Shown here: positions 2,370 through 64,000 of the stretch, piece after piece
Layout of the letters: every line of letters begins with the position of its first letter
Position numbering within the stretch: position 1 is the stretch's first letter
Origin: a virus
Taxonomy: Duplodnaviria; Heunggongvirae; Uroviricota; Caudoviricetes
DNA length: 64,000 nt
Virus record (IMG/VR): IMGVR_UViG_3300032050_000059
Direction: 5' to 3' (one strand)
Notes under the pieces: model-generated
The model's database searches: none
Told to the model about the DNA's origin: nothing
The model's input: only the letters and a program-made list of their open reading frames with translations
Translations under genes and position numbers: made by a program

Positions 2370-3069
2370 AGAGCCAATAGATTGTGTAATTGTTGTTGTC
2401 TTTAATAATCTTGTTCACCTTGGTGAATACACCCTCTGTATCCCAATCAGTTTGCTTGTAAGAAGCACTGGCTGGATGACTGAGGACAAATGACCATGTG
2501 AACGGAGGAACGTAGCGCTCATATTTAGCAGCGTCCTTACCTAGAAATATAACAGGAACACCAGCTGTGTCTATTACATGCTCAAAGAAATACCTTGTGA
2601 AAGGTTCCCAAAGAGCAATGTGTGAGCCTGCCTTGTTGATTTCTGTGGTGAGCGCTGCGTTAAACATTAGCACGCCCTGGTGAGCTAAATAGCTAACATC
2701 TGGTGTCTTTTCATACTTAAGATTGAGCCCGTTATACAGGTCTCTCTCTATTCCACCATAGAATTGTTCTAGTGATGGCTGTAATGTCTTTGTAATAGAA
2801 CAACCCATAAGTAGGCCATCTGCTACATATACACCATTCTTAGCTGTGTGATAAGGACACATGCCCATCATCACCACCTTTAGATCATCCAGAGAAGTTT
2901 CTTTGAATGCTCTGAAGACATTAGAAGAAAGAGGGGCAATTTTCTTACCCCTCTTTGACTCCTTTTTGAGAAACTCATAGATCTTGTCGCATTCCTCACT
3001 CTCGATAAACGGTTGCATTTTTGTATGCCAGCTCTCATGAAACTGGTCTTTGAATTTCTCCCAAATCAT
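2350..3069 (-). CDS. ung: family-1 uracil-DNA glycosylase homolog with a non-canonical active-site motif (GMCPYH in place of GQDPYH)
   Basis: Colinear match to E. coli/human UNG motifs: KVVMMGMCPYH (cf. VVILGQDPYH), HQGVLMFNAALT (cf. QGVLLLNTVLT), ALWEPFT (cf. LGWETFT), GVPVIFLGKDA (cf. GVVFLLWGSHA), LSHPASAS (cf. HPSPLS). Confidence 0.75.
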   Translation of the reverse strand: MIWEKFKDQFHESWHTKMQPFIESEECDKIYEFLKKESKRGKKIAPLSSNVFRAFKETSLDDLKVVMMGMCPYHTAKNGVYVADGLLMGCSITKTLQPSLEQFYGGIERDLYNGLNLKYEKTPDVSYLAHQGVLMFNAALTTEINKAGSHIALWEPFTRYFFEHVIDTAGVPVIFLGKDAAKYERYVPPFTWSFVLSHPASASYKQTDWDTEGVFTKVNKIIKDNNNYTIYWLYEEPPF

Positions 3070-3851: not shown

Positions 3852-4855
3852 TATAATAGTTGTTTGTGTTTTAAATATGACTCAATTGCACCTAGTCCAT
3901 GTTCTTTGGCTAGATCAGCCCAATCTTTGATTCCTTCTGTCAGATAGTTACGTGGGACGTTAGCATACTCAAAATCAAACAGCTTGGTTATCATTTGACT
4001 ATTCTTTACACCCACCTCATCTGCATCAAAGGACAGGATTTGCCTGTCAGAGTTGGCCTTTAGATATTCTACATTCTCATCAGAAAAGCATGCTACACCC
4101 TCATTCTGGACAGCACAACAGCATGGAAATATCTTCTTCATCACCATATAATCCTTCTTGGACTTGTTGATGAATGCCACGCTGCAATTCTTTATATCCT
4201 CCTTACCATCCATGGTTGTAATAGGTACATTATTGGGCACCCATTTGCTTTTCTTGTCTCCAAAAGGACGATACACCTTCCAATGGCCATCATAGAGATA
4301 GCCAAATCTAAGTTCTGTATCCTTAATAGGAAACTTCTTTCTGTTGAGATAGAGCTGTTTGATAGAATAAACGTTGTTAGCTCTGAGATCGTCGAGACTT
4401 TGATAATACTGGTTCCAATAGGCTAGTTCCTCTTGTGTGAACTTCCTTGTAACCACCTGAATCAGGGAATAGCGCTTGCCCAGGTCCTCTGGTTGCTTAT
4501 ATTCCTTCTGAATAGCCTTGTATTTCTCTGTTGAGTTGCCTGGTAGAAATCCCAGTCCAAAGTCCTTATCAATCATTCTGAGCACATCGTCTATAGAGCT
4601 GAGATTGAACAGCATTTTGACAAATGTGAAGCAATCTCCACGCTTACTGGTATCACCAAAGTCTATAAAGGATAGAAACCCTCTCTTGTTCCCTATTACA
4701 AACGAGGGATTGTTCTCATTTCTGAAGGGAGATAGTGTTGCTTGGTTGATTTTCCAGTTCTTATCTGGCATGTAGAACCTGAATATATCATACTCTGATA
4801 TCTTGTTGAGCACAGCTTGAGGTGTGAGCCTCACCTTGATGTCACCTTGGATCAT
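3851..4855 (-). CDS. TOPRIM-domain protein, putative DnaG-type primase
   Basis: C-terminal segment QILSFDADEVGVKNSQMITKLF matches the TOPRIM DxD motif (cf. DnaG IILCFDGDRAGR). It sits in the replication gene cluster. The zinc-finger region is not evident. Confidence 0.4.
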   Translation of the reverse strand: MIQGDIKVRLTPQAVLNKISEYDIFRFYMPDKNWKINQATLSPFRNENNPSFVIGNKRGFLSFIDFGDTSKRGDCFTFVKMLFNLSSIDDVLRMIDKDFGLGFLPGNSTEKYKAIQKEYKQPEDLGKRYSLIQVVTRKFTQEELAYWNQYYQSLDDLRANNVYSIKQLYLNRKKFPIKDTELRFGYLYDGHWKVYRPFGDKKSKWVPNNVPITTMDGKEDIKNCSVAFINKSKKDYMVMKKIFPCCCAVQNEGVACFSDENVEYLKANSDRQILSFDADEVGVKNSQMITKLFDFEYANVPRNYLTEGIKDWADLAKEHGLGAIESYLKHKQLL

Positions 4856-10962: not shown

Positions 10963-11394
10963 TTAGTCTTTAATGCGAAGCCCATATCCCAGGTCAAACC
11001 ACTGGAATGTTTGTTCAGCTTTGCCTTTGTTGAATTTAAACACCTTCCTCAGTAGAGGAATAGCGTAAGACTTGAACAGCTCGTGCTGTTGTGTGGTCAT
11101 TGTGAAGTTGTGAAACCACATTTCATCCTTTTTAGCATCCTCTATGGTTTTACCCACCATATTCAGCTGATACTCAATTAGATGGTCCTGTATATTTGTT
11201 CTATTGATGGTCACCTTGGGCTGTGGGAAGAATCTATTGAGCCTTATTTGCTCTAGGAATTCTTTTTTATCCCACACTTCCACATGTGGACGCTCTTCAA
11301 TAAAAGACAGCTTGACAATATCCCCTTTAATGTAACTGATGAAACAAGGAGTACCAATGTAGTCCTTGTACTTGTCTCCTTTTGAAAGTTTCAT
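10963..11394 (-). CDS. hypothetical protein (143 aa)
   Basis: ORF that abuts the polymerase gene stop. Confidence 0.4.
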   Translation of the reverse strand: MKLSKGDKYKDYIGTPCFISYIKGDIVKLSFIEERPHVEVWDKKEFLEQIRLNRFFPQPKVTINRTNIQDHLIEYQLNMVGKTIEDAKKDEMWFHNFTMTTQQHELFKSYAIPLLRKVFKFNKGKAEQTFQWFDLGYGLRIKD

Positions 11395-13352
11395 TAGAAT
11401 AAGGTTAACTGATTAGGATTAACTACCACCTTGCGCTTCTTGCCTTCAGATGCTATCTTATAGATGATCTTCTCAGCACGCTCAATGTAATAGTCATAAT
11501 TAATGTTATCCAGAGGATGTTTTTTGTCTAGGTGATTGCATACGGTGGCTAACCACTCACCAGCTTCCACTTGTGAAACACTGGCAGCACCACTTTGACT
11601 GTCCTCATTTTTAACCTTTAGGAGCTTTTCTCCTGTATTGGAGATGTAATAACGAATGAGCTTATTGTATAGCTTCTTCTCACCTGTTGACTTATCTATT
11701 CCTTCATAATGGAAATCCTTGCTAGCCTTTTGTCTCAGGCAGAAGTCAAAGATATTATTATGATTCCTAATAGTATGCTCAATAGGTATATCACGAACAA
11801 AATATTGTTCAAGAGCCATTGGTACAATGCGTGCTGACTTGTTCTTATGAAGCTCGAAATCTGTGAGGAAATCGCCTTTCTTCTTAATTTCTCCATCTGT
11901 TTTTATCGCAAGATAGTCATTTACAGTGGAAAATATAATTTTTTGATAGTCAGCTCGTTCTAGCTCATATTTGGTCAGTTCAGACCACCATTTGTTTATC
12001 TCATGCATCCTATCGATGAGTGTCTTCTTTATTCTTATAGTGACACCATCTGTATTTGCAGAGATAACACGTATACCAGCTAGTTCATAGGCCTCAATAA
12101 GCATCATCAGGCTCAGTTCACCTGTAATAGTGGTGAACATAGTGAGCTGCCTATCATAAATCCAGGATTGCATATCACTAGATTTGCCATAAACTGAGTT
12201 TACAGCAAGCTTCAGTGCACCTACAATACCCTTGATTTTCTTATCCTTCTTAGCTAAAGGCTTGAGTTCCAATCGCTTCTCAAACATGGCTTGATAGCCT
12301 CTGAGAAACGCAGATCCTAAGTGTTGTGGATAACGGCCATTATTAATGATGATGGCTGGATAATAGGAACTTACGTCCCAGTCTATAATCTCATGCTCAT
12401 CATCAGCTTCAAATATCTTAGGTTTATTCTCTGTATGCAGTCCGCCCTTCATGAAAGAATATACATTATCATAGAAATGTAGCTCCTCCTTAAAGTCATC
12501 CTGCAGCCCTAAGCTTAATCTCTTTATTCTCTTGAGGAAGTCTTGTAGCTCTTTGGTCTGAAACTCCACATATGGAGCAATACAGTTCTTTACAGCTATA
12601 GTCTTCCTAAAGAAGCCCTTCTTGGGCAGTTCTTTATATTCTATTCCCTTCTCCTGGCAATAGAACTTCTTAATCATCTCATCACCTATCTTACTATCAG
12701 AATAGTTGAGACAAGGGATACCGAACTCTTGCTCGATATCCTGTCTCAGCTCAATCTTATTATCTCCCTTATACAAGGGATGATCTGTTTGTCCAATAGT
12801 AACTAAATAGAATTGATAAGTGGCCCACACATCATTCAAACAATAACCCGTGATGGTAAAAATATCATCGCTGGTCATGTCTGTCTTGTTGTGATCAATA
12901 GGCATCTCCTCAATATTCTCAAGGTCCATCTCAAACTCTAATCTCTTCAGGCTCACTCTTCTATTCTTGTTGTCAAAGTGGTGTATCCTGAATAAGTCTA
13001 TTTGTTTGAGCGTGAGGTCTGTCTCACGATACTCTGGAAATACATCATGATTAGCATCATCAATAACATCAGATGCTTTCTGATTTATCCTGGCTGTAAT
13101 CTCTAGACTAGAGAGCTCATGCCAATTCTCATAGTTGCGTATCACCCATTCTATCACCTGAGAGTCAAAGCGCAAGTTGTTGTAGCCCACCCAATGATAG
13201 TCTTTGTACTTCTCTGTGAAATTAATAAACGCATCCAGATTGTTCTCATCCTTATTCACCTTGAACACTCTGTATGGTTCTTGAGGAATCAACGCCACCA
13301 CAAGGAAATATTCTTTAAGCGTCTCTATGTCATAAATGATTACATTGTCCAT
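11394..13352 (-). CDS. family-B DNA polymerase with 3'-5' exonuclease domain
   Basis: Exo I IIYDIETL. Pol motif A DWDVSSYYPAII (Dx2SLYPS-like). Motif B KLAVNSVYGKS (Kx3NSxYG). Motif C-like ISANTDGV. Confidence 0.8.
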   Translation of the reverse strand: MDNVIIYDIETLKEYFLVVALIPQEPYRVFKVNKDENNLDAFINFTEKYKDYHWVGYNNLRFDSQVIEWVIRNYENWHELSSLEITARINQKASDVIDDANHDVFPEYRETDLTLKQIDLFRIHHFDNKNRRVSLKRLEFEMDLENIEEMPIDHNKTDMTSDDIFTITGYCLNDVWATYQFYLVTIGQTDHPLYKGDNKIELRQDIEQEFGIPCLNYSDSKIGDEMIKKFYCQEKGIEYKELPKKGFFRKTIAVKNCIAPYVEFQTKELQDFLKRIKRLSLGLQDDFKEELHFYDNVYSFMKGGLHTENKPKIFEADDEHEIIDWDVSSYYPAIIINNGRYPQHLGSAFLRGYQAMFEKRLELKPLAKKDKKIKGIVGALKLAVNSVYGKSSDMQSWIYDRQLTMFTTITGELSLMMLIEAYELAGIRVISANTDGVTIRIKKTLIDRMHEINKWWSELTKYELERADYQKIIFSTVNDYLAIKTDGEIKKKGDFLTDFELHKNKSARIVPMALEQYFVRDIPIEHTIRNHNNIFDFCLRQKASKDFHYEGIDKSTGEKKLYNKLIRYYISNTGEKLLKVKNEDSQSGAASVSQVEAGEWLATVCNHLDKKHPLDNINYDYYIERAEKIIYKIASEGKKRKVVVNPNQLTLF

Positions 13353-43900: not shown

Positions 43901-45984
43901 ACACTGTAGACACTGGTTTCCAAGCACTTGTAGATGACATCACTCCTAATGTATCAACTATATTTGGTGGTGATACATTCATCAGCAGATTTGCTTTCAA
44001 GACCAAACTTCCATTCTTCATAGATAATCGTGTAAATGCTCCTGATGATAGTGATATATTCTACGATGAGATTGGTAATATAGCCTATCCAAAATACTGG
44101 CACTCAGCACGTTCCATCCTGAAAGATTATGCAATCACAGGTGTGGGCGTACTATCAAACATCATATCTTACAAAGCTCACAACTTTGACTGTCCAAACA
44201 GTCAATTTGTAGCTCCTGGACAACCTAAGGATAGCAATCCTGGAAGAACCTATTACGATGGATATTTCTATCTGTTTGCATATGGTATTCCTAACTTCTA
44301 TTGTGAGAGCTCTTACAACGTAGATTTACGTCAGGCATTCAACAATAGAGAAGGTGACTTCTGGCCTCACGTGAGCACAGGTATTCCTGATGACTGGGTG
44401 CAGCAGAGCTTTGTTCCTATTATTCAGGACAACACCTACTACTATAATGTAACCTATTCTAAACAGAACAGGGAGAACACATTTACCCATTTGCCTATCG
44501 ACTGGGACAAACCTTGCTATACATACTATCCATTCAGAGCTATCTATTCTGATTCTCAGAACATTGATTCTGATAACAGAGTGAATAGCTGGTTGATTTA
44601 CAGAGCCATATCTTACTATGATTTCCCACAGAACTATGGAAATCTGATATCTCTAGACGGAATCCAGAACAGAGCTGTTCTTGCTCGCTTTGAGAACAAG
44701 ACACTCATGTACAACAACCTTCTTACGATAGATACAAGTAACCCTCAGGCTGCATACGTAGGTAATCCTATGCTGTTCAGAGGAGCACCTCCAATTGACT
44801 TTGCAGAAACTGATTTAGGATATGTAGGAAGTCAAAACAAGATGTTGTTGAAGATCCCACAAGGACAAGTGACTGCAGATGCTAAACGTGGTCAAATCTT
44901 CCTCATTAGTGGTACACAGGCTGTGGACATATCTGGATTTGGTTCAGGAGTAAACAGGTTCCTTACAGACCACTTAGCGTTTGAAATCTTACGTTACTTC
45001 CCCAAGGTAAACACTGATAACAACTATGCAGGTATTGGTTTGCATGGTGTATATGATAGTAAGTATGACCGTGTGTTAATCACTAAGCTTGATTACATTC
45101 CAAAAAGAAATGATATTGTATATGATGAGGTTACAAAAGAGTTCTATATAGTTAAAACTGTTAACGGTTTAACTATTAAAACTCCTGTAAACTTAACTGA
45201 CCAAGAATACTTCTGTAACAAGAGTTGGACATTATCCTTCAACTTTAATACTAAGAGCTGGATAAGTTTCCATACATATCTGCCTAACTGGTATATTGGA
45301 GAGAACAACTTCTTCTATTCTGGTATTAATGGATGCTGTGAAGACTTTGAGGTGATTGCTGGTATACCTGGACCTGTTCCAACCACCACTACTACTTCTA
45401 GTACATCTACCACATCTACCAGTTCTACTACTACAACCACTACAACACGTGATTGTCGTCTTGAAGGAGAAGTTGAGATTACAGATTGTCCTCTTGATGG
45501 AACAGCTATTGTAACTGTACCTGCTCCAAATCCTCCTTGTGAAAGACCTCAAGGATTAACTCAAGAGGCGTTCTTTACAGGATATGATATAATTATTCCG
45601 CCAAGCAACACTGTATCTACAGGAAGTGCAACAGACGCATGTGATGCTGTAAACTACCTGAATACATTCGGTGGAAGCTATGTGAATGTTATTCCTACAT
45701 ACGTCCTAGTAGAATACCAAGGATTGTACATAGGATCTGATGTATACATATTCAACGGTACAACAGACTGTGAGACTATTCCTGATGGCTGGTATTTCAC
45801 AGGAGCATCTCAGGCAGTGAATACAGTGTTCCATGTGGTGGGTGGTGAAATCTCAATGATTGTTGTTTGTCAACCTACAACAACTACAACATCAACTAGT
45901 AGCACAACAACTACTACAACCACTACAATAGTTCCTGTTGATTGTATATTTGGTGGAACAGCAGAGGAAACAGCACCTTTATAA
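40909..45984 (+). CDS. giant virion/tail protein (1691 aa) with a poly-Thr linker and a C-terminal module
   Basis: Long ORF. TTTTSSTSTTSTSSTTTTTTT linker at about aa 1485. Second T-rich tract TTTTTSTSSTTTTTTTT near the C-terminus. Confidence 0.5.
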   Translation: MAELEKGNIKQEYNNATTGLNMDQTVNQIQKGRLTYALNAAVENFDANSVNYQNEPGNELCVTFPSGFILIGTHFIQEKNKHIFFITNPETGGSQIGYMENNDCVYRVIVNAPCLNFNIDHPIHKVAHKITNCTTEIYWTDGFNPRRYLDIDDVPKVLKSGTPFCDPEYTDDLDCNQLKLQPNFKIPQLEVTDVTSTGNLIAGTYQFAIQYSDPQGNPYTSYYSITNPTPIADPFITSVNFNYPVGKSIILNISNLEDTGLYQYFNLAVIKTVNDITSVELVGTYYIDNLQKQITYTGQNVTQIRLTINDIFEKFPYYDVAQDLTNAQDVLIWDNLTSIDRINYQSIANQIPLLWETYRIPATENYADELNATNLRGYLRDEVYAFEIVFLLKNGKQTDGFHIPGRIKGPAENLQPDVPDTNPDFIGVPDYTSGGVGYSPYWKIYNTGSVIGTSPGYSPAPDYKGPYQYGQFAYWESTDTYPCNKDVWGDLAGQPIRHHKFPDINVSPAYESKIFTGPGGMVMGNDAVFPIGVRIDVQQVSALIQSSSLTDDQKSDIVAFKIVRADRGTNKSIIAKGILRNVNTYEREEEIYYYPNYPYNDLNADPFLNTTNNAYSQICDGYNVFIDTLAVDPAGGPDFAEIEWTDCNTNKLTKKKVLAIGVYPFCSIGKPRILGPATGKVGLSTYEVWTAQVCNTSPFGFAQGGRIEWDDIYTGITTDWVSGWPTFPTLTLYVVPGTVPVQIEGPGEICFNGPTLVTGPDCKGENPQPGFTEKYRQIFNSPETSFGQPFLGDILKLESVMFGRGKAHFVEVKDNAKYKLLTEEAQRDALESAEDLGDITTPFNATAMFTAYQAYLTIYVNGITRKNYAYSFNSIADYNYGVGVPDNLGIKQRTLDIARYLIPGVLNVGDIHNINNFQRESSVYLRTDLTKTALPFPDQSPNMLSGGNPIVTDISRFTISEKNKCQAPAREEDISVVSYYASLKNVFVNQYGQIYSYDTVDTGFQALVDDITPNVSTIFGGDTFISRFAFKTKLPFFIDNRVNAPDDSDIFYDEIGNIAYPKYWHSARSILKDYAITGVGVLSNIISYKAHNFDCPNSQFVAPGQPKDSNPGRTYYDGYFYLFAYGIPNFYCESSYNVDLRQAFNNREGDFWPHVSTGIPDDWVQQSFVPIIQDNTYYYNVTYSKQNRENTFTHLPIDWDKPCYTYYPFRAIYSDSQNIDSDNRVNSWLIYRAISYYDFPQNYGNLISLDGIQNRAVLARFENKTLMYNNLLTIDTSNPQAAYVGNPMLFRGAPPIDFAETDLGYVGSQNKMLLKIPQGQVTADAKRGQIFLISGTQAVDISGFGSGVNRFLTDHLAFEILRYFPKVNTDNNYAGIGLHGVYDSKYDRVLITKLDYIPKRNDIVYDEVTKEFYIVKTVNGLTIKTPVNLTDQEYFCNKSWTLSFNFNTKSWISFHTYLPNWYIGENNFFYSGINGCCEDFEVIAGIPGPVPTTTTTSSTSTTSTSSTTTTTTTRDCRLEGEVEITDCPLDGTAIVTVPAPNPPCERPQGLTQEAFFTGYDIIIPPSNTVSTGSATDACDAVNYLNTFGGSYVNVIPTYVLVEYQGLYIGSDVYIFNGTTDCETIPDGWYFTGASQAVNTVFHVVGGEISMIVVCQPTTTTTSTSSTTTTTTTTIVPVDCIFGGTAEETAPL

Positions 45985-46860: not shown

Positions 46861-47765
46861 TGGCAAAGAAACTCACATCAGCAAAAGCAAAGGAAATCCT
46901 ACACGACAAGAGCGTGCATGGGCATCCTTTGACAGACAAGCAAAGAAGATTCTTCGGTGCTATAGCTGGAGGTGCTAAGCCTTACAAAGCTGAGGAAGGT
47001 GGATGGTTGGATAAGTATGAACAAGGAGGATTGGTATTGAAGCAAAAGAAACAAGATAACTACGGTAAAAAAGGCAACTATAACGACTATACAATATCCA
47101 CTCCCCCAGGATTTGTAGGTATGGGTAATAACCTCAAAGGTCGCAACTACAGTCCTGCGTGGGGTGGACAGTTTCAAGATGGTGGTAATTTGATGCCTGC
47201 TATGGCTGGAGCTAACCAAACTGTTCCTATGGCTCAATTGGGAGACAGTGTTAAACCCATCCCAATGCAATTAGCAATGGGAGGAAGTCTTCCTGGTGCT
47301 GTTGGGTTCACGTACGCACGCACGGTGGGAGCTGCTCCTGACAATGGTCCATATGCTAAGAAGACAAAGGCTAGTGCACAGAATGGACAGGAGATGAAAT
47401 ACTACCAAGCAGGACTAGATTTCAAACCTAAGACTATTAGTCAAGATGGGTCTGTTATAGATCCTGAAGGATACTGGAACCCAGACAACTGGGGTAAATC
47501 AGTTATCATCCCATCCACAGATATCACTATGAAGGGTGTGGATCAACCACTAATTGGTGTATCTGACACAGGAGATGTACAATATATGGAGCCTGGAGAG
47601 GATTATGAATTTGATGGTGAATATGTAACAGAATATCCTGTAGCTAAGGGAGGAATTAGTGTGAATAATGCTGATGCTCAACCTATTAAAAAGTTAGATC
47701 AATTACTTAACTTTACAAACTATAACAAACCAACCAAGGGCGGCTGGTTAGATAAATATAATTGA
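46860..47765 (+). CDS. Gly-rich virion protein (301 aa) with GGWLDKY repeated near both termini
   Basis: AEEGGWLDKYEQGG near the N-terminus and PTKGGWLDKYN at the C-terminus. FQDGG-type motifs are shared with the next protein. Confidence 0.4.
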   Translation: MAKKLTSAKAKEILHDKSVHGHPLTDKQRRFFGAIAGGAKPYKAEEGGWLDKYEQGGLVLKQKKQDNYGKKGNYNDYTISTPPGFVGMGNNLKGRNYSPAWGGQFQDGGNLMPAMAGANQTVPMAQLGDSVKPIPMQLAMGGSLPGAVGFTYARTVGAAPDNGPYAKKTKASAQNGQEMKYYQAGLDFKPKTISQDGSVIDPEGYWNPDNWGKSVIIPSTDITMKGVDQPLIGVSDTGDVQYMEPGEDYEFDGEYVTEYPVAKGGISVNNADAQPIKKLDQLLNFTNYNKPTKGGWLDKYN

Positions 47766-51026: not shown

Positions 51027-53690
51027 ATGGCCTCTTATACAGACATAATACCCCAGTTTAACCCCTATATCCAGCAGCTTCCTGTGGAGGCTATGGTGCA
51101 GGTGGGTATGGAGAAACAGAAGCGCTATGATGAGGGGGTCCAAAAGATTCAGTCTCAGATAGATAGTGTAGCTGGCTTGGACATATACCATCCTTCAGAT
51201 AGAATGTATTTGCAGTCTAAACTGAATGAACTTGGTAACAATCTTAGAACTGTGGCCGCTGGTGATTTCTCCAACTATCAGCTTGTCAACTCTGTAGGAG
51301 GTATGACTACCCAGATTGTTAAAGACAAAAATGTACAGAATGCTGTACGTTCTACACAACAGATTAGGAAGCAACAAACTTTGATGGACCAGGCTAGGGA
51401 GAAAGGTACCCTCCATAGAAACAATGAGATTTTCTTCAACGACCAGGTGATCTCCTATCTGAATAACAATAAAGTGGGACAGGTATTTGGTGAGAACTAT
51501 CAACCGTACACTGACTACCAGAAAAAGTGGTTGGAAGTCCAAAAGAGTCTTGGTATAAAGGAAACACAAACAGATCTTCCATTTGTAATGCAAGATGGTA
51601 AGATAGTCATTGACCCAAAGACCAAGAAGCCTATGGTCAATGATTACATGGTAAGGGAAACCTTCAAAGGTGTTGATGCTCAAAGACTTAAGGAAGCCAT
51701 CATGGCAGCTATGGATGATAATGACTATGCACAGATGAAGATTGATGCATATGTTAGCTACAAGGGATACACACCTGATATGCTTATTAAGGAAGCTGAT
51801 AGCACTTATAGGTCTAACAAAGAGGAGTTGACAAAGACTATAGACAATCTAACCATCCTGAAAACTCAGAATGTTGGAAATCAACAGATGACCAAGGATA
51901 TAGATGTTCAACTTGAACAATATAAAAAACAGCTGAAGAATACAGAAGATCAGTATAGAGATGTAATAGCAGGAATTCAGGCAAATCCTGAGGGATACAA
52001 ACAGAAGCTATTTGCAATGAATTCTATAAACAACTTTGCTAATAGTTTCTCAAACATATCCCATATTCAAAATATTGTAGATAGTCCCATCAAAAAACAA
52101 ATGAATGAGGACAGAGCCTACAACTTCAAGGTGGTTGAGTTTAACACAAAGAATGCTCAGTGGCAGAAAGAGTTTGGTTTAAAAGTAGCTACAGAATCTA
52201 GACTTGCAAATAAAGAAGCATTTGACCAAGCACTAGCCTTATATAAAGAAGGATTGGGTCCTAATCCTCTTGGTCCAACTACAGCTAAATATGTTGGAGC
52301 TCCTCCTACAGATAAAGAGATATTGGATGGAATGGTAGAAAGCTTTAAACAAGGAGCTGACATAGACCAACTGAATAATGACAAGAATGCATTAAAGGTG
52401 AATTGGGCAAAGAACCAGCCTTCTAAAGCAGACTATGCAAAACAGAAAGGAATAGATCTTAAAAACTATACAGACGCACAATATAGAGCTGATTTAGATA
52501 AACAATTCAACAGTGACTTAGCTGCATATAATTCAAACAAGAACTCTGTAGATGCTCCTACAAGAAAAATCCTTGGTCAGTATTCTGAGCTGGATAGATT
52601 GTATAAGCTTAAGGTTAATGCAATAAATGATGCAACTGAAAAAGCAAACGCACTTCATCCTGAAGTGACTGAAGAGGCAAATAAGCTATCTAACAATAAG
52701 GTGAGCTTTTTGGATTATACATTTAAAGATGGAAAACCTGGAGTGTATAACATACTAACAAAAAGTGCAAGAGAGATATACGAAGATATTCAATCTGGAA
52801 AAGCCACATTAAGAGTGGACAAAGCTCCTGGAGGATATATTGTACTTAGATATCCTGGTTCAAATATTACATATGAAATATCTAAGAAAGGTGGATTCTT
52901 TGGTTCTGACAAGGTGGGAGGAAAACAAACAAGAGAATTGCTTTTGTCTGTTCATGATACATACAACAGAGTAGGACAGTCTATTAAAAATAGAGATGCA
53001 GACTTTGCAAAAATACTTGGTGAAACTATCAACTCTGTAGCTCCAGTATCATCATTGCTTCCAAAGGGAGCAACAAGCACTCTTCTACCTTTGATAGAGG
53101 ATAAACTAGGAAGAGAGCAAAAAGGACAGACAGAGGAACTAGCTGGCTTTGTAAAAGGTAAGGATTTTAACTTTGACACTGTAAAAGAACTAGCTCTAAA
53201 TCCTGACACTAAGGTGACTCATACTACCTGGGGAGATAATGTATTCATTACAATGACTGGAATGCTAGGTAAAAATCTTGCAACTCAGAAGTTTAAGATT
53301 TCAAAGTCTGACTTTGCTACAATGTATCCAAATCTTGTTGACAATACAAATATGGATTTCTGGCAATCAGCAGCAGCAAATGGTAGCACCAACTACAAAT
53401 ATCACGTTGCTAAGAGCGCTTTGATGAATCCAGATGATGCTTTCACTTCTGGCACTTACGATATTCCATCTAAGAAATACATAGTGAAGGGTGATATCTT
53501 CTTTGATCAAACTGACAAAAACAACACCACCCCTGTTGTTTATGTAAAAAGTAAAAAGACAGGAAAGGTTGTTCCTATTCCTGGCGAGGTGTTTTCTACT
53601 TTTTCAGGTTCTGAAAAATCAATGTATCAAGTGAATGATCTGTTGATAGAGAACTACTTTAAAAATAATAATCTAGATGCCGATTTTTAA
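51027..53690 (+). CDS. large virion protein (887 aa), K/N/D-rich
   Basis: ORF. Candidate -7 promoter element TACATTTG at 51005-51012. Ends with tandem stops TAATAA. Confidence 0.45.
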   Translation: MASYTDIIPQFNPYIQQLPVEAMVQVGMEKQKRYDEGVQKIQSQIDSVAGLDIYHPSDRMYLQSKLNELGNNLRTVAAGDFSNYQLVNSVGGMTTQIVKDKNVQNAVRSTQQIRKQQTLMDQAREKGTLHRNNEIFFNDQVISYLNNNKVGQVFGENYQPYTDYQKKWLEVQKSLGIKETQTDLPFVMQDGKIVIDPKTKKPMVNDYMVRETFKGVDAQRLKEAIMAAMDDNDYAQMKIDAYVSYKGYTPDMLIKEADSTYRSNKEELTKTIDNLTILKTQNVGNQQMTKDIDVQLEQYKKQLKNTEDQYRDVIAGIQANPEGYKQKLFAMNSINNFANSFSNISHIQNIVDSPIKKQMNEDRAYNFKVVEFNTKNAQWQKEFGLKVATESRLANKEAFDQALALYKEGLGPNPLGPTTAKYVGAPPTDKEILDGMVESFKQGADIDQLNNDKNALKVNWAKNQPSKADYAKQKGIDLKNYTDAQYRADLDKQFNSDLAAYNSNKNSVDAPTRKILGQYSELDRLYKLKVNAINDATEKANALHPEVTEEANKLSNNKVSFLDYTFKDGKPGVYNILTKSAREIYEDIQSGKATLRVDKAPGGYIVLRYPGSNITYEISKKGGFFGSDKVGGKQTRELLLSVHDTYNRVGQSIKNRDADFAKILGETINSVAPVSSLLPKGATSTLLPLIEDKLGREQKGQTEELAGFVKGKDFNFDTVKELALNPDTKVTHTTWGDNVFITMTGMLGKNLATQKFKISKSDFATMYPNLVDNTNMDFWQSAAANGSTNYKYHVAKSALMNPDDAFTSGTYDIPSKKYIVKGDIFFDQTDKNNTTPVVYVKSKKTGKVVPIPGEVFSTFSGSEKSMYQVNDLLIENYFKNNNLDADF

Positions 53691-53691
53691 T

Positions 53692-56600
53692 AAAGATTTA
53701 CCAGCTTTTGATAAGCCACTTGAAGGATTTCCCAAAGAGCAAGAAGTCTATAAGGGAAAGGTGTTGCCTGACACCCTGCATCCTGCTGTCCCAAATCTAG
53801 ATTCAGACTTTGGACAGGTGGGTACTGGAGATGTTCAAGACCTATTCAGAATGAACTCTGTCCAATCAGGACCTATATTCGGATCTACAATAAGTGAGCT
53901 TTCTAGAAACAAGAGGTATGATTATTATAAGCCAGGAACAAACTATGAAGATTTATATGCAAGAGTACAACCCTGGTACAAGCAGATTGGTAACGGTCTT
54001 GTAAAAGGGGGTGCCTTTATGGTGGGCACCTTTGCACAATCATTCAATAGTATTCCAGAAACAATAAACGCTGTAGCAAAAAAAGATTTATCTGAGCTTG
54101 CTGGAAAAGACTCTTATGTTAGTCCTATAGATGATTGGTATAGAAATCTAGAAGATCTCTATCCCAACTACTATTCAGACTATGAGAAAGCACATCCTTT
54201 TAAAAGCATCCTAGGTAGTGGCTTTGCTAACACCTTTGGAGACAAGTTTGTTAAGAACCTTGGATTCATGGGTGGTGCTATTGCTGGTGCTGTAGTGCAG
54301 GATTTTGCCATAGGTGCTCTTACACAAGGACTTGGTGAAATTCCTTTGCTATCTAACCAGATAGGAAAAGCAGCTCTTTACATGAATAAAATCCTATCCT
54401 CAGAAAGCAGGGTGGGAAGAGCATTGGGTGCTAGTGAAAAGGGTATACTTACATCGTTTCTAGATAGCGGTGTGCAAGCTGGTAGAACAGCTGAGCAGCT
54501 CAATAGAATGGAAACATTGGCTCAATTGGCTGCTTCTAGAAAGATTAACAATCAGTTTAGATATGGACTTAATCTGTGGACATCTGCTCTCACTGAGGCA
54601 GGAATTGAGTCAAGAGATGGATACAGAACATTGAAGACTGATCTGATTGATCAATACAAGCTTGACAACTATGGATTAGAACCCACTGGAAAAGACCTGA
54701 AAGATATTGAGGATATTGCTACATCTGCTATGAATGCTAGGGAAATAGGAAACCTTGGCATCCTCCTTGTATCAAACGCTATACAGTTTGAAAACATATT
54801 AAGACCTTTCTCTTCAGCAAGAGTAGGTGTAACCTCTCCTATATTCCAGGAAATTGCTGGTAAGCGCATTGCTCTTCAAGATGGACTAATGGGTGGCTAT
54901 TCAGAAATAGTGCCTAAGTCTACATTTGGAAAGATAGTTAGAGACATCAAACCATATGCACCTGAACTGTTTACAGAAGGTGTGTTTGAAGAGGGTGGAC
55001 AGTTTGCAATAGAAAGAGGTACGTACGACTATTACAATAAGAAGTATTTTGATCAGAAAAATAACAAATCAAGAAACGACTTAGCTGAATTCATTGATTC
55101 TATAGGAACTGGACTAGTTGACCAATTCAGAACAACAGCTGGTTGGGAGAACATGTTCCTAGGAGCTTTGACAGCAGGACTCACTGGTAAAGCAAAGAGT
55201 GTATATAGTAACATAAAAGGTACAGGATCAAAAGCTCAGATAGCTGCTGAGATTAACAATCTCAACTCTAGCCAGCTCATGGGTGTATTTGAGAACAACT
55301 TTGAAAATGCTGCTCAACAGCTTAAGGCTTCTAAAGACATGGAAGCTGCTGTTAAGAAGAGAGATATATTTGAATACAAGAATGCTCAGTTTAGAGCTTT
55401 GTTCTCTTGGGCAAATGCCAGAATGCAGGGCAACAGATATGGTCTTCTAGAGGAAGAAATTAAACTTGCCAAAGAACTTCCTAATGAGCAATTCAAACAA
55501 ATGTTTGGATTTGATGCTACGGCAGACAACAGACAGGTTGTAAATGCATACCTGTCATTGGTTCAAGAGGAAGCTAATAAGATTAAGAGAAACTACGACA
55601 AGATCAATGAGTTCTTTGTAAACCCTTACAAGTATATTAGAACTCCTAAGACTGATGAGGAAATAACTGAAAGCGAGAACTACAGGAAGTATGAGAACTA
55701 TAAGACAGCAATGACTTATTTCCCATCCTTGATTGATCATGCTGACAGAAGAACCGATGAGATACAGAAAGAACTGATTGACATCAATCCTCTATTGTCT
55801 GTAGATATAGTTAAGAAACTTGGTAGTGTTGACTCGCTATTAGACTTGGCTAAAGAATATGAGAAAGAGGCTACAACATCTCTTGGTCTAATTAGTGACA
55901 TCACCACTCCTGAGGAAAGAAAGAAACTGGAGAGAAGAGCTAAGACACTTAGAAACCTAGCAGAAAAAATATATGGTGTTACAGACACCTACTATTTAGT
56001 AGCAAAAGATGAGATGTCTAAAGATGTTCTTTCTAGGAAGGAAAATCTACCAGGCGACTATCTTAAGCTATTTGACAACCTAGTAAACTTTGAGATTAAC
56101 GGAAGAGACCCTCTAAGAACTGATAAGAACATCAAACATCCTCTGGATGTAGAAAAGGCTATCTCTCTAGCTGTAGATCTTAACAGACTGGCTGAGATGA
56201 AGAAAGATGCAGGAGATGCATTTGATATTCTATCTAATCCTGAGAAAGGGTTTGACGAGTTTAACAAGGTGGATGAGAACAGACTTCCTCCTAAACATTC
56301 TCCTGAGTCAGAACTCACTCCTGGTAGAGAGTATGAAACTTCAAATCTTGGTAAGTATAGAACCAGGAAGATTGCTGATGGAAGATACCAAGTGATTAGT
56401 CCAGACAAGACTATTGTATCTACACATCCTTCAAAAGAAGAAGCATCTGCCACTACTAAGTATTTGAATGAAAATCTAAGCAGCCTACTTAAGGTGACTG
56501 TGGTTAGAGATAATGGAGATGGCACTATCAGAATCACTGACTCTAATGGTGACATTCAAGATATTCCTAAAGCAGATATATTAAAATACACTCCTCTTGA

Positions 56601-59600
56601 AACCCAAGAGGAAAAGATAGCTAAGCAGAAAGAGCAAATAGCTAATGAGCAGAAAGACCTAGAGGCAGATTCTGGAAACGTAAACACAGGAAACCCTGCA
56701 GAACCTTACGGTAAAGAAAGTGCTCTTCCTGATATAAAGATATTGTTCAGCTCAAGCACTACAGAATCTGAAGGTAGTGATGATCCTAACTGGCAGAAGA
56801 ATGCTGCTCTGTCTCCTATTCACATTAAGAATTCTAGAGAGTTTTTAAACAAGGCACAGGGTTTTGCTAATAGAGCAAACCTAAGAGCCATCCTTATCAC
56901 TCCTCTATTGGAGAAAGCATATGGATTAGAGGGACTCACTCAAATCTCCTATGGTGTCAGAAATGAGGACCTAGCAACACAAGAACAAAAAGACAAGTTC
57001 TTAAAAGACACTACAGATTTAAACAATGGATTCATTGCCCAAGTGTTTGTAGAACAAGTAGGTAGTGATCTATACTTTATTGATAAAACTGGAAACAAAC
57101 TTGGTAAGTTTGGAGAGCAATTAGATGAAACCAAACTTGGTAATGTTGTTTTCCAGACAATGCGTAGAGCTGCTCTTAAAGATAGTCAGGGTGGTACAAA
57201 AGCAAGAAGTGGACAGGAGGAAGAAGCTAAAGTATATCTAGAAGCTTGGAAAAAAGAAAGAGCAAACATATTTGCTACAGATCCTAACGCCTCTCCTACA
57301 GTTTATGAGTTCAACATATCTAGAGGTATACCTATAGATGGTGATACTCCTAATCATGTAGCAGGCACACTGATTACATCTGATCCTAAGGAAGAAAGAC
57401 AAGTTCTTAAGGGTCAATCAATTATACAGATTCCAACAACCAAGACTATCACATTCAAAGGAAGAGCTATAAACTTCCCTAATGGCAGACCAGTTCTTGT
57501 ATATGGTGACAATGTTGCCTTCTTGAACAATGTGAAGTTGGATGGCAAGAGAGCTCAGGTGATATATGCTGTTATTGAGAAGATGGCTAATGACATCACT
57601 CAGAGAGCTAATGCTGGAAAGAAGATTGTATTCAGTAAGACAAAAGAAGCCAAGTTCCTGCAGAACATTCTCTATTGGAGAACAGGAGATACAAAAGAGG
57701 GTTCTAATCAGATAAACATTTCTGAGGATGGAACCACAATATCTTTTGCTGGTAAGTCATTCCCTATTGCTAAACTGGCTGAGAATAAGAAGGAATTAAT
57801 TGAGGCCATCAGTAACTCCTACCACAATACAAACAACAAGAGCTTGTCTGAGGAAATGTTCAGCAAGTCCTTTACAGAGTTCTACATTGAGAAGGGAGAA
57901 CTCAAGTCTCGTGATTGGGCTAACTACCAGTCCTACTTGTTGTCCTCTACATTCCCAGATGGATCTAAGAGAGCTGCAGCTGACACCCCTCTTACAACTA
58001 AAATAGCTATTCCTCTTTCTGAGATTCCTTATACACATAAGCAGAAATACTCAACTCTTATAGGACTTGAGCTTCCTATTGGTGTAATAAACAAACCTGC
58101 TGCAGAAGCTAAAGAAACTGTTGTAGAAGCTCCTAAAGGTAAGTTTGATTACAACGGAACAAAAGAGAACACCACTCCTATTCTGAGCTTTGGTAATGTA
58201 TCCTTCACTGTTAAGGAAGGAGAAGATCCTCAGTTCTTGGTAGACAGCGAGGAGTTTAAGAAGACACAAGATAACCTTGTTAAGAAACTAAGACAAAACT
58301 CCCCAGAGGCAGATGAGGAATCATTGGTTAAACAAGCCAATGGTGTCATCCTCAGTGTTGTTAGAAAGGAAGTGGATAATGATCTAAAGACTGCTACAGT
58401 TGAGGAAGTTGTTCCCACTGCTGAGGAAGTAAAACCTACTGAGGAAGTAAAACCTGTTGAAGAGAAAAAAGAAGAAGAACCTAAGAAGACACAGTTTGAT
58501 CCTAAGAAGACAAAGAAGAGAGGAAACCTATTCAGAGCTGTAAGTGAGACTGATGAGTCTGAGAGAATGACTGAGGCTGATATTGAAGCCTTTAAGAAAT
58601 GGCATGCTGAGAAGGTACCTCAAATCCCTTATGAGATTCTTGGACAGATGGTAACCATCAATCCTAATAGAAAGGCATGGGGTGTGTTTGAAAATGGTGT
58701 GGCTAAGTTTGTACGTGGTGGATTGAGAGCTACAGAATACCATGAGATATTTCATGGCATATGGAGAGGATTGCTAAACGCTGATGAAAGAGCTGCTATT
58801 GTAAAAGAGTTTAATGCTAAAGAGGGTAGCTTCAAAGACAGGCTTAGTGGTAAGACTATCAACTTTGCTGATGCTACAGAAGAGCAAGTGGAAGATAGAC
58901 TAGCTGATGACTTCAGTGATTACAGAAAAGGTAAGCTTGCTGCTAGAACTTTAGGAGATGCTATCCGTGAGTTCTTCAAAAGAATCATGGATTTCTTCAA
59001 GTCCTTTGTAGCCAAACCTACATTAAAGGACCAACTGTTTGATAATATTGAGCAAGGTAGATTCAAAGATAGAGAGCTTGCACCTGAGGTTAAGAACCTA
59101 GGCCCAGCTTACAGAGCTGCAGAAGGTCTTAACGAACAGCAGACTAACGAGTTTGTTCAGGATATGACAGCCCTATCTTCTGCCATGATCTTTGGAAATG
59201 GAAAGATAGGTGCAATTGATAAGTCAGCCATCTATGATATTAGAAAGATAACCAGCAAGCAAGTGTTTGATGAGATTAAAAACATCTACACTGAGCAGGG
59301 CTGGATGGATCAACTTAGTGAAAACACCTGGAATGATCTGGTTGAAAAGACTAAGCGCTCCCTAAAAGCCAACCTTAAGGTTTCCTTTAATGAGGAAGAC
59401 TTGGTGAACATCAACGATGAGCAAAGTAATAACAGAGACTATGCTCCAGAACCATTCTCTACAGACTATAAGAAGTCTGCTCCTGTTGGAATAAAGTTCA
59501 CATCTTCTACTATTCCTAAGACCAAAGCAATGAGTCAGGAGGGTAGAACATCTCTCACTCTTCCTGATCTAAAAGATACTAATAATCTTTATTCACTGGT

Positions 59601-62600
59601 TCCTTATGGACAAGTGTTCTCCACTGTAATCAACGCCCTCCATAATACAAGCATTGGTAAAATAGCTGGAAAACTTCTAAAACTAAGCCAGAAAGACTCT
59701 GACTATGTTAGATTCTTCCAAAGGGTGGGAGGAGATCTGGAAACAGGAACTCTTCCATTTGGAGACTTCAAGTATGATGATTGGAGATTGTTTATAGAAT
59801 TGGTACAGGTGTATACAAAACAAAAGCCTGATGCTAGGATAGAATACATACAAGGAAATCAGGTGTATTCTGGTTCTGCGCTTGTAACAGGTATTGTCAA
59901 CACCACTGTTAAAGGATGGATACAGAACATCAGAAACCTGGCTAAAGATCCAGACTCAATCATTAAATATGATAGTATAGATAAATCCTACACAATTGAG
60001 GATATATCAGATGTAAAGATTGACAGCCCTAAAGAACAATTGGAGTTCCTTGCAAAGCTGGGAGTAACATTCTCTAAGGATGCATATGACCGTCTTAGCA
60101 AAGATATTAAAGAGAACAAGTTCCCAACAGCTGTAAGCTCTATTAAGAACACCCTGCTTAAGGATAAGCAGATCATGAATGTTCAGAAGAAAACTCTGGA
60201 CATCGGAGGTCCTCTAAATACATTGGCTGAGTTCCTGGTAGGTGCTACTAATCCTATTCAGGCAAGCACCCGTACAAACATCACAGGTAACCAAGCTAAC
60301 TCATTTGCAGATAGCAACGCTCCTTCTGTGTTTGAAACCACATTCAATGAGGTGGGAAGTATACAGGAGCTGTTCCAAATCAGACCTGAGCTACAAGATG
60401 TGTTCTCTAAAGGATCACAAGTGCTCAAACTTGGTGGACTGTTCTTTGATGAAGACGGTAAGAGAACTAACTTAAAGATTAAGTTGGGATATATCGAAGG
60501 AAGAAACAACAATGACACCTCTTCAGGAAAGTCAGTTGGTAATCTTACAGAGGGAGAAAAGCTTTCTTTGGAGATTAACCAGAACCTGAATGGTCAGTTC
60601 TATGTACTGATTCCTGCAGATAGCTCTACAGAATGGATGATGAATCTAGGAAACAATGTAGAGTTTGCTGAATTTGAAACAGGAGAGGCATGGGACAAGG
60701 TGAATAACATATTCAAGGATTATCTATTTGATGACGTAGCTCTTGCCCTAGATGCTGATAACAGAAAAGATATTAGAAACCTTGGAGACAGAGCAAGAGA
60801 TCTTCGCTTCTTTGGAGAGATTCTCTCTGAGAAATACGCTTCTGCCATCCAGGAAATGATTGATGATGAGAGATCACTTAGTGATATCCAAACATACATC
60901 AATGAGAACTTTAAGGATAGAGAGGTTGAAGACCCAGTGGGTAACAAGAAAATTGTTCTTGGTATAGAGTCTGACATCAAAGCTTTCATAAATGGTTCAG
61001 CACAAGAAACCATAGAAAACCTGAAAAACACAGGTGAGCTTTCTTTCACAGATGAAGGTTTTCTTAAATATGAATCTCTTGATGGCAACTTTGCTAGCAG
61101 AGAAAGTTTAAAAAAGAATGAGCTAAGTGAGGAAGATGTTACAAACATTATAATGTTTGCTAATACCAACCAGATCATTAGCAACTTTGAGTATCACAAG
61201 ATATTGTTTGGTGATCCTTATCAGTTTGCTATTAAGGATAATCAGCTAGATGAGACTAAGCGTATTAAGAGCTTCCTCTCTCCAAGAAGAATGACTGTTG
61301 ATCTTGTGGAGTTTAACTCATTCCTTAATGATAATGTGAACAATGCTGATGGAATAAAGCTTGATCCTAAAGATCCAGGCTACCACACCTTCAAGTCTTA
61401 CACAAAGACTATTACATTGAATGATGTGAAGGTGGCTAGTTCACTGGCTAATAATCCTAATCTTTCTAAGGAAGTGAGAAAAGCCTTCCTTGATATCACT
61501 GAGGCTGACGCTTCTTCTATTCTTGAGCTAGGCACATATAGAGAGGTTAAGATTAAGAACTCTCAGTGGCCTAAGGAAGCAGAAGATTGGTATCAATGGC
61601 AGATGGCTTATACCAGACAGAACATGCCTGGATATGAATACACTAATCCTGTTCTTGAGGAACATGACAAAGCATTGGTAGCTACTCCTGAGCCTAGTTT
61701 CGTAATAGAGGTGCTGAAGCCAATTGTATCTGGTGTAAAGAACAACAAGAACAGAATTGAGCTTGTGCTTGATAAGTTCTCCCAAATGCCCATCTACTAT
61801 AAGGCTGTACAGGGAACTAGTCTTGAAGATGTATATCTGAGAATGATTAATCCTGATAACCAAATAGGTTATGCTATCATGGTGTCTGGTAGAAAGGTGG
61901 GTGCTCAGAAATTGTATGAGCTATACAAAGGTGGCAAACTAAACAGTGATGCTTTCTCTGAGGAAGACATTGTTGAGGTGCCTTGGAAGATATATGGTAT
62001 ACAGGTGGAGAATAGTTATGAAGGTCCTGGTTACCAAACTAGAGGTAGTCAGCTTACAAAGATATCTACCCTTGACCTATATGCATACGGTGAACCTATT
62101 GGTGCTAATGCTGAGAGAAAAGAAGCTATTAGAGCTGCTGTAAATAAGAACAAAGACATCCTTAGTAGATACCATAAGAATAAATATGAAGGTTTCCTTA
62201 AGAAAGCTGGACTAGAAGACTTGGAAGGTGTGTACAGAATTGTAGACAGAGCTGCTCTTGCTAAGGCTCTGCAGGATGAGATGTTCAAAAGAACTCTGTC
62301 TGAGAATGTAGTGGATAGTATACAACTTGATGAAAACAACGAGTTCATCATTCCTTTTGAGGCTTCTCCTGCATATGTTCAGATTAGAAACATCATCTAT
62401 TCTTTCATAGATAAGGCTATCGGTTCTCCTAAAATGTCAGGTGGTCCATATGTACAGGTGCCTGTAACAGGATGGGAAAGTGCTTCTAAGGGAAGAGGTC
62501 TGGCTGTAAAGACAAAAGATGGCTACAAAAAGATAAGCAGAGAAGAGTATGAGGCTATGGAGGATAAGAAAGGTGTAATCCTTACAGAGGACACTCTTAA

Positions 62601-64000
62601 GATATATGAGGATGAGAAGGGTAAGAGATATTGTGAGGTGATGATTCCTCACTGGTTCAGAGATTTGGGCAAGCTGTCTAAGAAGACAGATGCTGAAATC
62701 CTGCAATATCTGAACACTCCTGAAGGAAGAAAGATACTAACAGGTGTTGGTTTCCGTATTCCTACACAGGCGCTAAGCTCTGCAGAAGTGTTTGTTGTGA
62801 AGGGCTTCCTTCCTAAGGCTATGGGTAAGACGGTGGTTGTTCCATCAGCCATCACTACAAAAGCTGGATCTGACTTTGATATAGATAAACTCAACATGTA
62901 TCTGAAAGCCACCTATATTGATAGGAATGGTAATCTCAAACTTGTCACTCTTGAGGGTGATGAGGCAAGTACAAGAGCTTTCTATACAAAGGTGTTCAAT
63001 GATTCATTAGCTGGAAAACAAATGTACAAGACTGAGCTGTTGGAAGCTGCACAGATCTTATCATACAACCTTGATGATCCTAAGAATCTTGTAGAGAAAT
63101 ATGCTAATACATTAAACATTGTTCTTGAAGGAGTTACTGACTCATCTGACTATGAGCAGGCTATAATAGATGATATTAATGAGCTTGGAGATGAAAACAT
63201 TCAGAAGGGTCTGAGAGAGAAGTTTGTAGATGAGATGTATACAAAAGCTCTTGAAAATGAATACTATGAGAGCCTAGAAGAACTGCTTACACTCCCTGAG
63301 AACTTCAGCAGATTGGTGAATCCTGTAACTGATGGTGGTCTGAAGAAGCTAGCTGGAAAGATAGATGCATTGAAAGGATATGATGAAGCAGCTGTTAAGA
63401 ACAAGCTTCTTAATAGAAACTTCCTGAGCAATCTAAGGAATGCATTCATCACTGGTAAGAAGTGGGTGGGTATTGTGGCTACAAACATCACAGGACACTC
63501 TCTTGCACAGAAGTCTAAGATTATAATTGATCCAGTTAGATTTGAAAATGTTAAGAATAGAGACGAGAGAAACATTCTTAAATACAATGGTGGACAGATC
63601 CTCCTTGATCATAACACTATAGAAGTGGATGGTAAGACATATGCTTCTATCTCAGGAATCTATGATGCTAAGAATGAAGGATACATCTCTGATGGTTTAT
63701 CTGGATATGCTACAGCTGTTGTGGACGTTGCTAAAGACCCATACATCTTGAGAATCATTAAGAGCGATCTTTTGATAAGCACATTCATGTTCCTCAGAAG
63801 AGTAGGTGTTCCTAATGAGCAGCTGGCAATGTTCATGAACCAGCCAATCATAGATGAGTATATTAAGCTCTTAGATAAGAAGAAGTCAAAAACTCTATTT
63901 GATTCAAGATATATAAATGAGATACAGGAGTTTTTCCCTCATCTTAAACAAGACATAACTAATACGTTTGATAAGGATGGTCTTGAAGAAAACATCAAAA
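53692..64000 (+). CDS. giant virion protein (more than 3400 aa, 3' partial) containing a crAss-like virion RNA polymerase DPBB catalytic segment; start codon uncertain
   Basis: Frame 53692... is stop-free to the window end. The first in-frame ATG is at 53851; GTG is at 53761. At 62792-62886 the translation reads GFRIPTQALSSAEVFVVKGFLP...VVPSAITTKAGSDFDIDKLNMY, paralleling RNAP beta-prime RAPTLH...NADFDGDQMAVH. An HEIFH motif lies at 58741-58755. Confidence 0.6.

Follow-up and report, generated by a model that had tools for sequence, protein, structure and literature searches.

The stretch of DNA analysed here, 64,000 nucleotides of a Caudoviricetes virus (IMG/VR record IMGVR_UViG_3300032050_000059), called the window below, ends inside a giant open reading frame (ORF). 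This frame very probably (about 0.9) encodes a single-chain, two-barrel virion RNA polymerase (RNAP) of the crAss type, N-terminally fused to a RNAP-associated cargo protein of the gp47 family. Sequence comparison establishes the homology of its catalytic core (aa 2372 to about 3485) to gp66 of Cellulophaga phage phi14:2, and that of aa 1 to about 1800 to gp47 of Bacteroides phage crAss001. The fusion is not new, as it has already been stated by Drobysheva et al. for some phages. The parts of the frame are as follows, with residues numbered along the giant protein.

53677..64000, plus strand: giant ORF, of whose 3978 codons the window holds the first 3441; the stop is 537 codons past the window end
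53677..58086, plus strand: N-module, aa 1-1470, a homologue of the crAss001 gp47 N-terminal part
58087..58536, plus strand: low-complexity linker rich in Glu, Lys, Val and Pro, aa 1471-1620, of varying length among relatives
58594..59076, plus strand: HE domain, aa ~1640-1800, a homologue of the HEAFH domain at the C-terminus of crAss001 gp47
59077..60789, plus strand: middle region, aa 1801-2371, conserved across the family, separating the HE domain from the recognisable RNAP core
60790..63999, plus strand: RNAP core, aa 2372-3441 in the window, colinear with gp66 744-1747 and with crAss001 gp50
61684..61986, plus strand: beta-like first barrel region, aa ~2670-2770, aligned to the part of gp66 immediately preceding the Connector; inferred boundaries
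61987..62451, plus strand: Connector between the barrels, aa 2771-2925, equivalent to gp66 1095-1238 (hmmalign, 139 aligned positions)
62452..62916, plus strand: beta-prime-like second barrel, aa 2926-3080, with FRIPTQ (3026-3031) and the catalytic GSDFDIDK
62872-62886, plus strand: DFDID, predicted Mg2+-binding triad, aa 3066-3070, aligned to gp66 1361-DFDID-1365
63412..63540, plus strand: bridge-helix equivalent, aa 3246-3288, corresponding to gp66 1529-1559; hmmalign pairs GKKWVGIVATNITGH with GKSGVGITANMLVDH
63667..63798, plus strand: trigger-loop equivalent, aa 3331-3374, corresponding to gp66 1598-1636; VVDVAKDPYI against FVDNAKDPYI, with AKDPYI conserved

The full-length gene and its polymerase core

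In frame 0 of the plus strand, a TAG at 53674-53676 is immediately followed by the ATG at 53677, and there is no stop to base 63999, which makes 3441 codons. A protein search found P0001, which has 3978 aa and is 100% identical along the entire query. The stop codon, which a preliminary description of the locus had proposed to look for beyond the window, is found 537 codons past its end on contig L004, which holds the complete gene and is identical to the window at 20324 of 20324 overlapping bases. Two further contigs differ from the window at 3 and 10 positions, and both have the 3978-aa gene; the complete giant gene is thus carried by three contigs from different samples. This contradicts the read error that the same description had allowed for, one splitting the frame into genes of conventional size. 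The N-terminus of the giant protein (M1 and MPIF) is kept in 40 homologues.

Where the near-identical contigs L002 and L003 depart from the window, the substitutions are not scattered, but come in runs of 3-5 within about 20 nt, located at window positions 44556-44577, 47429-47450 and 61239-61257. They may reflect micro-recombination or local hypervariability.

The peptide GVGFRIPTQALSSAEVFVVKGFLPKAMGKTVVVPSAITTKAGSDFDIDKLNMY, quoted in the preliminary description, was found at residues 3023-3075. Its DFDID, at aa 3066-3070 and nt 62872-62886, lies where the preliminary description had reported it (62780-62890, about 3060 residues into an uninterrupted frame of more than 3400 aa). A six-frame translation of the window contains no other DFDxD. 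By chance, the composition of the giant ORF would yield 0.003 DFDID and 0.05 DFDxD. DFDID alone is weak evidence; the colinear match of the surrounding 1000 residues to gp66 takes it far beyond chance. A phmmer search of the PDB with the giant ORF gave a single match, the gp66 structure 6VR4 (E 2e-16, query residues 2372-3406 against 758-1682 of the chain), in which 'ITTKAGSDFDIDKL' is aligned to 'IPTKTGSDFDIDKM' and SDFDIDK to SDFDIDK residue for residue. The profile comparison with gp66 that the preliminary description had proposed, made here with a profile of 18 family members, again finds 6VR4 in the PDB, at E 3e-29; the only other match, to a nucleoporin at E 0.12, is noise. The motif had been called a signature of crAss-like virion RNAPs, and this reading is supported: 6VR4 is the only PDB match, the motif is exact, and the Asp triad is essential in gp66, where any D-to-A change abolishes activity (Drobysheva et al.).

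An hmmsearch with the family profile scores gp66 at 2e-38 and crAss001 gp50 at 2e-32. Domain matches on gp66 are located at 790-986 (E 1.5e-8), 1027-1252 (1.7e-13) and 1314-1717 (3e-28). In 50,697 phage genomes, tblastn retrieved 109 records, all of them crAss-like, with 22-29% identity and the label RNA polymerase where annotated; a blastn comparison of 4 kb with the phage genomes gave no match. In Pfam, the whole giant ORF finds no family at E<=1 besides three noise hits, and PHROGs provide nothing usable. The core homology extends beyond the window, to about residue 3485. The assignment of the DFDID segment to a predicted Mg-binding barrel of a crAss-like, virion-type two-barrel RNAP is supported.

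The landmarks of gp66 were taken with the boundaries of Drobysheva et al. and carried over to the giant ORF by hmmalign profile alignment. The family alignment comprises 40 homologues with 39-88% identity. The stretch expected to form the first barrel features the basic motifs KPIVSGVK (2681), LDKFSQMPIYY (2698) and SGRKVGA (2737), which are near-invariant in the alignment as KPIVSGxK, LDKFSQMPxYY and SGRKVGA. In the second barrel, F3026, R3027, P3029, G3064, S3065, D3066, F3067, D3068, D3070 and K3071 are invariant; DFDID is present in 39 of the 40 sequences, and the remaining one has DFDVD. The preliminary description had suggested searching downstream of the window for any second double-psi beta-barrel; its place is instead ahead of DFDID, around residues 2670-2770. 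The colinearity with the beta-prime barrel that it had claimed stands in part: the RxPT...DFDxD layout is present, but no Pfam family matches at E<=1, and the relation rests on the published gp66 structure.

An AlphaFold2 model of aa 2600-3441, built with 18 homologues, is unusable, with a predicted local distance difference test (pLDDT) of 50, a predicted template modelling score of 0.37 and values below 50 in the barrels; hence the RNAP fold is assigned by homology only. Neither profile nor sequence alignment gives a significant match to the N-terminal 740 residues of gp66, which may be too diverged. In gp66, this part contains the cleft-blocking element, residues 196-233 near the N-terminus, that keeps the enzyme self-inhibited. 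A weak local match of aa 466-557 to gp66 1974-2068 was also seen (conditional E about 3e-5, full-database E 6.4). It is absent when profiles are used and may be compositional.

The N-terminal fusion partner

The preliminary description had noted that the frame is much longer than the characterised enzymes and might include cargo domains. Both points are confirmed: the giant protein has 3978 aa, against 2180 in gp66 and 2412 in crAss001 gp50, and its first 1800 or so residues are homologous to gp47 of crAss001, annotated as 'putative RNA-polymerase subunit'. For the N-module, tblastn against gp47 gives E 2e-14; the family profile gives E 4e-24 with a colinear alignment, and phmmer from gp47 to the giant ORF gives E 4e-18 over three colinear stretches. 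The matches of the N-module to phi14:2 gp67 are colinear but weak, and the N-module is probably the equivalent of gp67. The lengths agree as well, since gp67 (1797 aa) and gp66 (2180 aa) add up to 3977 aa, against 3978 aa of the giant protein. Within the N-module, conservation peaks at aa 105-225, a stretch rich in glycine and moderately hydrophobic. The best hydropathy segment, aa 197-215, has a mean of 1.53, below the usual transmembrane threshold.

The linker is the site of length variation: insertions of 60-180 aa in relatives fall at positions 1531-1600, and some relatives appear to have their genes split there. The HE domain is named here after its HEIFH (aa 1689-1693, nt 58741-58755), which is predicted to be helical. 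Its profile matches residues 2121-2297 of crAss001 gp47 at E 3e-18. The motif reads TEYHEIF[H/E]GIW in the family alignment, where Y1688, H1689 and E1690 are invariant and the second His is replaced by Glu in 25 of the 40 sequences. The domain is a candidate zincin-like peptidase. No zincin match was obtained for it in Pfam or in a profile search of the PDB, and Foldseek against the PDB with its AlphaFold2 model, a poor one (pLDDT 62), gave nothing below E 0.7. It could be a processing peptidase.

A fusion partner of the phi14:2 gp65 type was also considered, as gp65 contains HExxH, and rejected: the HE domain matches the C-terminus of crAss001 gp47 and not gp65, and the homologue of gp65 and gp49 is a separate downstream gene.

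The middle region, aa 1801-2371, has no significant match to gp47 or to the N-termini of gp66 and gp50, so the exact junction between the gp47-like part and the RNAP cannot be placed. It matches only the equivalent part of the 2967-aa protein of phage cr108_1, and is probably the diverged N-terminal third of gp66/gp50.

Neighbourhood, relatives and known systems

The window encodes a large terminase subunit (TerL), a portal and a major capsid protein of the crAss type. The ORFs of at least 150 aa between about 2.3 and 19.6 kb are all on the minus strand, including the DNA polymerase (11394-13352), whereas from about 21 kb the plus strand carries nearly all long ORFs, every identified structural and cargo gene among them. 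Thus the window has a divergent two-block layout. No tRNA genes were found in positions 1-64000. By TerL, the nearest cultured relative is Leptolyngbya phage Lbo-JY46 (40% identity), followed by the epsilon-group Cellulophaga phages phi17:2 and phi4:1 (33%). The window belongs to a divergent, environmental crAss-like phage, as judged from its genes.

Upstream of the giant ORF lies the crassvirus muzzle protein PF25731 (40909-45984). Two further upstream genes, of 1057 and 887 aa, match no family and show faint similarity to crAss001 gp45/gp46. The ATG of the giant ORF lies within the final 14 nt of the 887-aa gene (51027-53690), the overlap being 53677-53690 and in a different frame; this suggests translational coupling inside the cargo gene block. 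Directly downstream, with a 4-nt overlap, is a gene of 1671 aa (L004 21934-26949) belonging to the gp49/gp65 family (mini-profile E 5e-19; gp49 4e-8, colinear). As the homologies to gp47, gp66/gp50 and gp49/gp65 line up, the locus keeps the phi14:2 order gp67-gp66-gp65 with the first two genes fused. A 131-aa gene follows, and then a 3951-aa collagen-like tail-fibre gene (L004 27423-31937), with long Gly-Thr/Ser-Ser collagen-like repeats and tail-fibre PHROG matches.

A HMMER scan of 1.84 billion representatives with aa 2600-3441 yielded 2687 clusters, defined at 50% identity, at E<=1e-3 and 539 at E<=1e-30. Among the best 150 clusters, about 125 are at least 3500 aa long, with the RNAP core 2400-3100 residues from the N-terminus, and most fall in the range 3700-5600 aa. 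A few are about 2400-2900 aa long with the core near residue 1000-1400; a division at the linker, like that of Lbo-JY46, would account for these, truncation at contig ends being also possible. The giant fusion is real, conserved and widespread, yet already known in kind, and the giant ORF itself is no departure from the known crAss-type virion RNAPs. What the scan adds is that a giant fusion to which the literature devotes only a passing mention is the prevailing architecture of a large metagenomic clade. Its wider interest lies in the size of this clade and in the accessory enzymes appended to the C-terminus in relatives. Moreover, the module borders vary among phages, being located at the linker, after the HE domain, or absent, and these shifting gene boundaries delimit functional modules of almost uncharacterised proteins.

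The homologues with '53% coverage' seemed to have a swapped N-terminal half. This is a BLAST artefact, as the N-module is conserved in all 40 sequences.

The extra Pfam domains of the homologues, close and distant alike, are C-terminal additions. Such enzymes follow the RNAP in P0002 (aa 4128-4288) and P0022 (aa 4068-4493 and 4543-4758); an AlkB-like 2-oxoglutarate-Fe(II) oxygenase and a RecD/TraI-like superfamily 1 (SF1) helicase are among those appended in relatives, and the precomputed Pfam lists of other homologues include NADAR and histidine phosphatase. The giant protein of the window has none of these additions. In relatives they would be injected together with the polymerase; the helicase is suggestive, since the template of gp66 in vitro has to be single-stranded or denatured DNA.

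One homologue of 3929 aa, P0013, is labelled by NCBI as coming from a metagenome-assembled genome of Ignisphaera sp., an archaeon. Most likely it is a phage contig wrongly binned.

In phi14:2, gp66 is a single chain with two barrels and an identical SDFDIDK, colinear with the giant ORF through the trigger loop, and the gene neighbourhood is the same, with the gp65-like gene next. Unlike the giant protein, to which it is about 25% identical, gp66 is free-standing (2180 against 3978 aa), and the HExxH of phi14:2 (HEIMH) is situated in the downstream gp65, described in the literature as zincin-like, whereas here it precedes the RNAP core. According to Drobysheva et al., gp66 is packaged in the virion, depends on Mg, copies DNA and transcribes the early genes. 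The same authors write that the orthologues of gp66 and of its two neighbours are virion proteins, note that in some phages these are fused as one huge polyprotein, and propose its cleavage. The early transcripts made by gp66 have no known common motif.

In crAss001, gp47 corresponds to the N-module with the HE domain (HEAFH against HEIFH), gp50 to the core and gp49 to the downstream gene, and the RNAP-associated genes adjoin the muzzle and cargo genes. However, the three genes are separate, with gp49 and gp50 on the strand opposite to gp47, while the window has one ORF followed by a gp49-like gene on the same strand. The 2412-aa gp50 has DFDVD instead of DFDID. All three proteins were detected in crAss001 virions by mass spectrometry (Bayfield et al.).

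The RefSeq crAssphage cr108_1 (NC_055878, genes of 2967 and 798 aa) has the HE domain (YHESFH), the middle region and the RNAP core in one frame, so the fused layout already exists in public annotated genomes. Its N-terminal 1460 residues, on the other hand, are not recognised by the N-module profile of the giant ORF. The RNAP frame of cr108_1 (L006 18300-18760) is broken inside GSD|FDID, ending in ...AKAGSD*, and resumes about 290 nt further in another frame (...DIDKMYLY...); each half is annotated as a hypothetical protein of its own. The insert looks like an intron-type insertion.

In the cyanophage Lbo-JY46 (PP438436; L007 15794-28700), the N-module is a separate gene of 1552 aa (E 2e-82). 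The next gene, of 2748 aa, has a gp49-like C-terminus (E 2e-31). It contains no DFDxD and is matched by neither the RNAP nor the HE profiles. The polymerase of this phage may have been lost or replaced.

Two more distant systems are similar in layout. The virion polymerase of coliphage N4, gp50, also exceeds 3000 aa and combines an N-terminal ejection or anchor part, a polymerase and a HExxH domain. The likeness is architectural only, as N4 gp50 has a T7-like single-subunit right-hand fold and not two barrels; no homology to it was detected, the sequence and the family profile finding no credible PDB chain besides 6VR4. Polyvalent virion proteins are comparable to those relatives of the giant ORF that append enzymes such as the AlkB-like oxygenase and the SF1 helicase.

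Cellular beta-prime and Neurospora QDE-1 share with the giant ORF the RxPT and, some 35-39 residues further, DFDxD of the Mg-binding barrel, and the relation of gp66 to them was established by structure. Position 4 of the motif is universally Gly in cellular beta-prime and Ile in the giant ORF. The giant ORF has both barrels in one chain and no sequence match to the cellular enzymes or QDE-1 (Pfam E>1).

Function and processing of the fused protein

By comparison with phi14:2 and crAss001, the giant protein would be made late and packed in the cargo zone of the capsid. It would then be pushed through the tail in a partly unfolded state, ahead of the DNA or with it, and refold in the cytoplasm; the gp47/gp49/gp50 cargo of crAss001 must partly unfold to traverse the tail (Bayfield et al.). 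The three DFDID aspartates are expected to bind Mg2+, as in gp66, and the enzyme would transcribe the phage early genes without the host RNAP, and hence be resistant to rifampicin. Early transcription of this phage is probably independent of the host. The N-module probably aids ejection or anchoring, while any proteolytic separation would likely involve the acidic linker and the HE domain, as its place and agent.

Several points weigh against the identification of the giant ORF as a fused crAss-type virion RNAP. Packaging, activity and processing are transferred from homologues that share about 25% identity; the giant ORF is not covered by any Pfam or PHROG family; the barrel folds lack independent support, given the AlphaFold2 pLDDT of 50; and the cleft-blocking element, together with the N-terminal 740 residues of gp66, has no detectable counterpart. 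In addition, the RNAPs of the phages nearest by TerL, Lbo-JY46 and the epsilon group, are very divergent or not recognisable, so the behaviour of the enzyme could differ from that in phi14:2.

If the giant ORF does encode the fused virion RNAP, its fate in the virion may be described in several ways. One, which has close to an even chance, is that the 3978-aa chain is a precursor, cut in or near the linker or the HE domain to release a gp47-like protein and a separate RNAP of about 2100-2400 aa. Either the HE domain itself or another protease would be the cutter, and the working enzyme would have a conventional size. This agrees with the cleavage that Drobysheva et al. propose for fused forms and with the argument of Iyer et al. 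that zincin-like peptidases process polyvalent virion proteins. The linker is of low complexity and variable in length, and the module border is a gene border elsewhere: crAss001 has it after the HE domain and Lbo-JY46 at the linker, with a split at the linker also probable in some metagenomic relatives. On the other hand, a processing peptidase fits poorly with the loss of the second His of HExxH in most of the aligned relatives and with the lack of a zincin profile or fold match; a cleavage site is not known, and the N4 virion RNAP, of comparable layout, works as an intact tethered chain.

Tentatively, the chain may instead stay intact, by analogy with N4 gp50 and its N-terminal domain, RNAP and C-terminal domain: the N-module would enter first and anchor at the envelope or the ejection channel, and the RNAP would refold in the cytoplasm on the linker. 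More than 100 clusters retain the fusion, and so do homologues over the whole 39-88% range of identity, which argues for selection on linkage; the conserved glycine-rich stretch at aa 105-225 also counts in favour, and the N4 model follows the same logic, also with a HExxH domain. However, the hydropathy of aa 197-215 stays under the cut-off commonly used for transmembrane segments, the separate genes of the cultured phages crAss001, phi14:2 and Lbo-JY46 demonstrate that covalent linkage is not required, and there is no homology to the N4 proteins.

It is unlikely that throughout this large environmental clade the protein forms one permanent chain of about 450 kDa, in which the N-module leads ejection and tethers the polymerase at the site of DNA entry, the HE domain has lost its peptidase chemistry in most members (HExxE), and the C-terminus docks extra injected enzymes (AlkB-like oxygenase, RecD/TraI-like helicase, NADAR). 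With such a chain, crAss-type phages would have a convergent equivalent of the ejectosome-polymerase N4 gp50, which would double as a modular platform for the delivery of effectors.

Very improbable is a polymerase that is expressed in the cell and does not belong to the virion, or one that uses RNA templates like QDE-1. QDE-1, which has both DNA- and RNA-dependent activity, is indeed the closest structural relative of gp66, but gp66 copies DNA, the homologues gp66, gp47 and gp50 are virion components, and the gene is located in the structural block on the late strand, between the muzzle and cargo genes and the tail-fibre gene.

Finally, the motif is short and the giant ORF matches no Pfam or PHROG family, but the chance that the long frame is a sequencing or assembly error, or that DFDID arose at random in an unrelated structural protein, is negligible given the same 3978-aa product on three further contigs from different samples, more than 200 homologues with the same architecture, and the 6VR4 matches (E 2e-16 and 3e-29) over about 1000 colinear residues.

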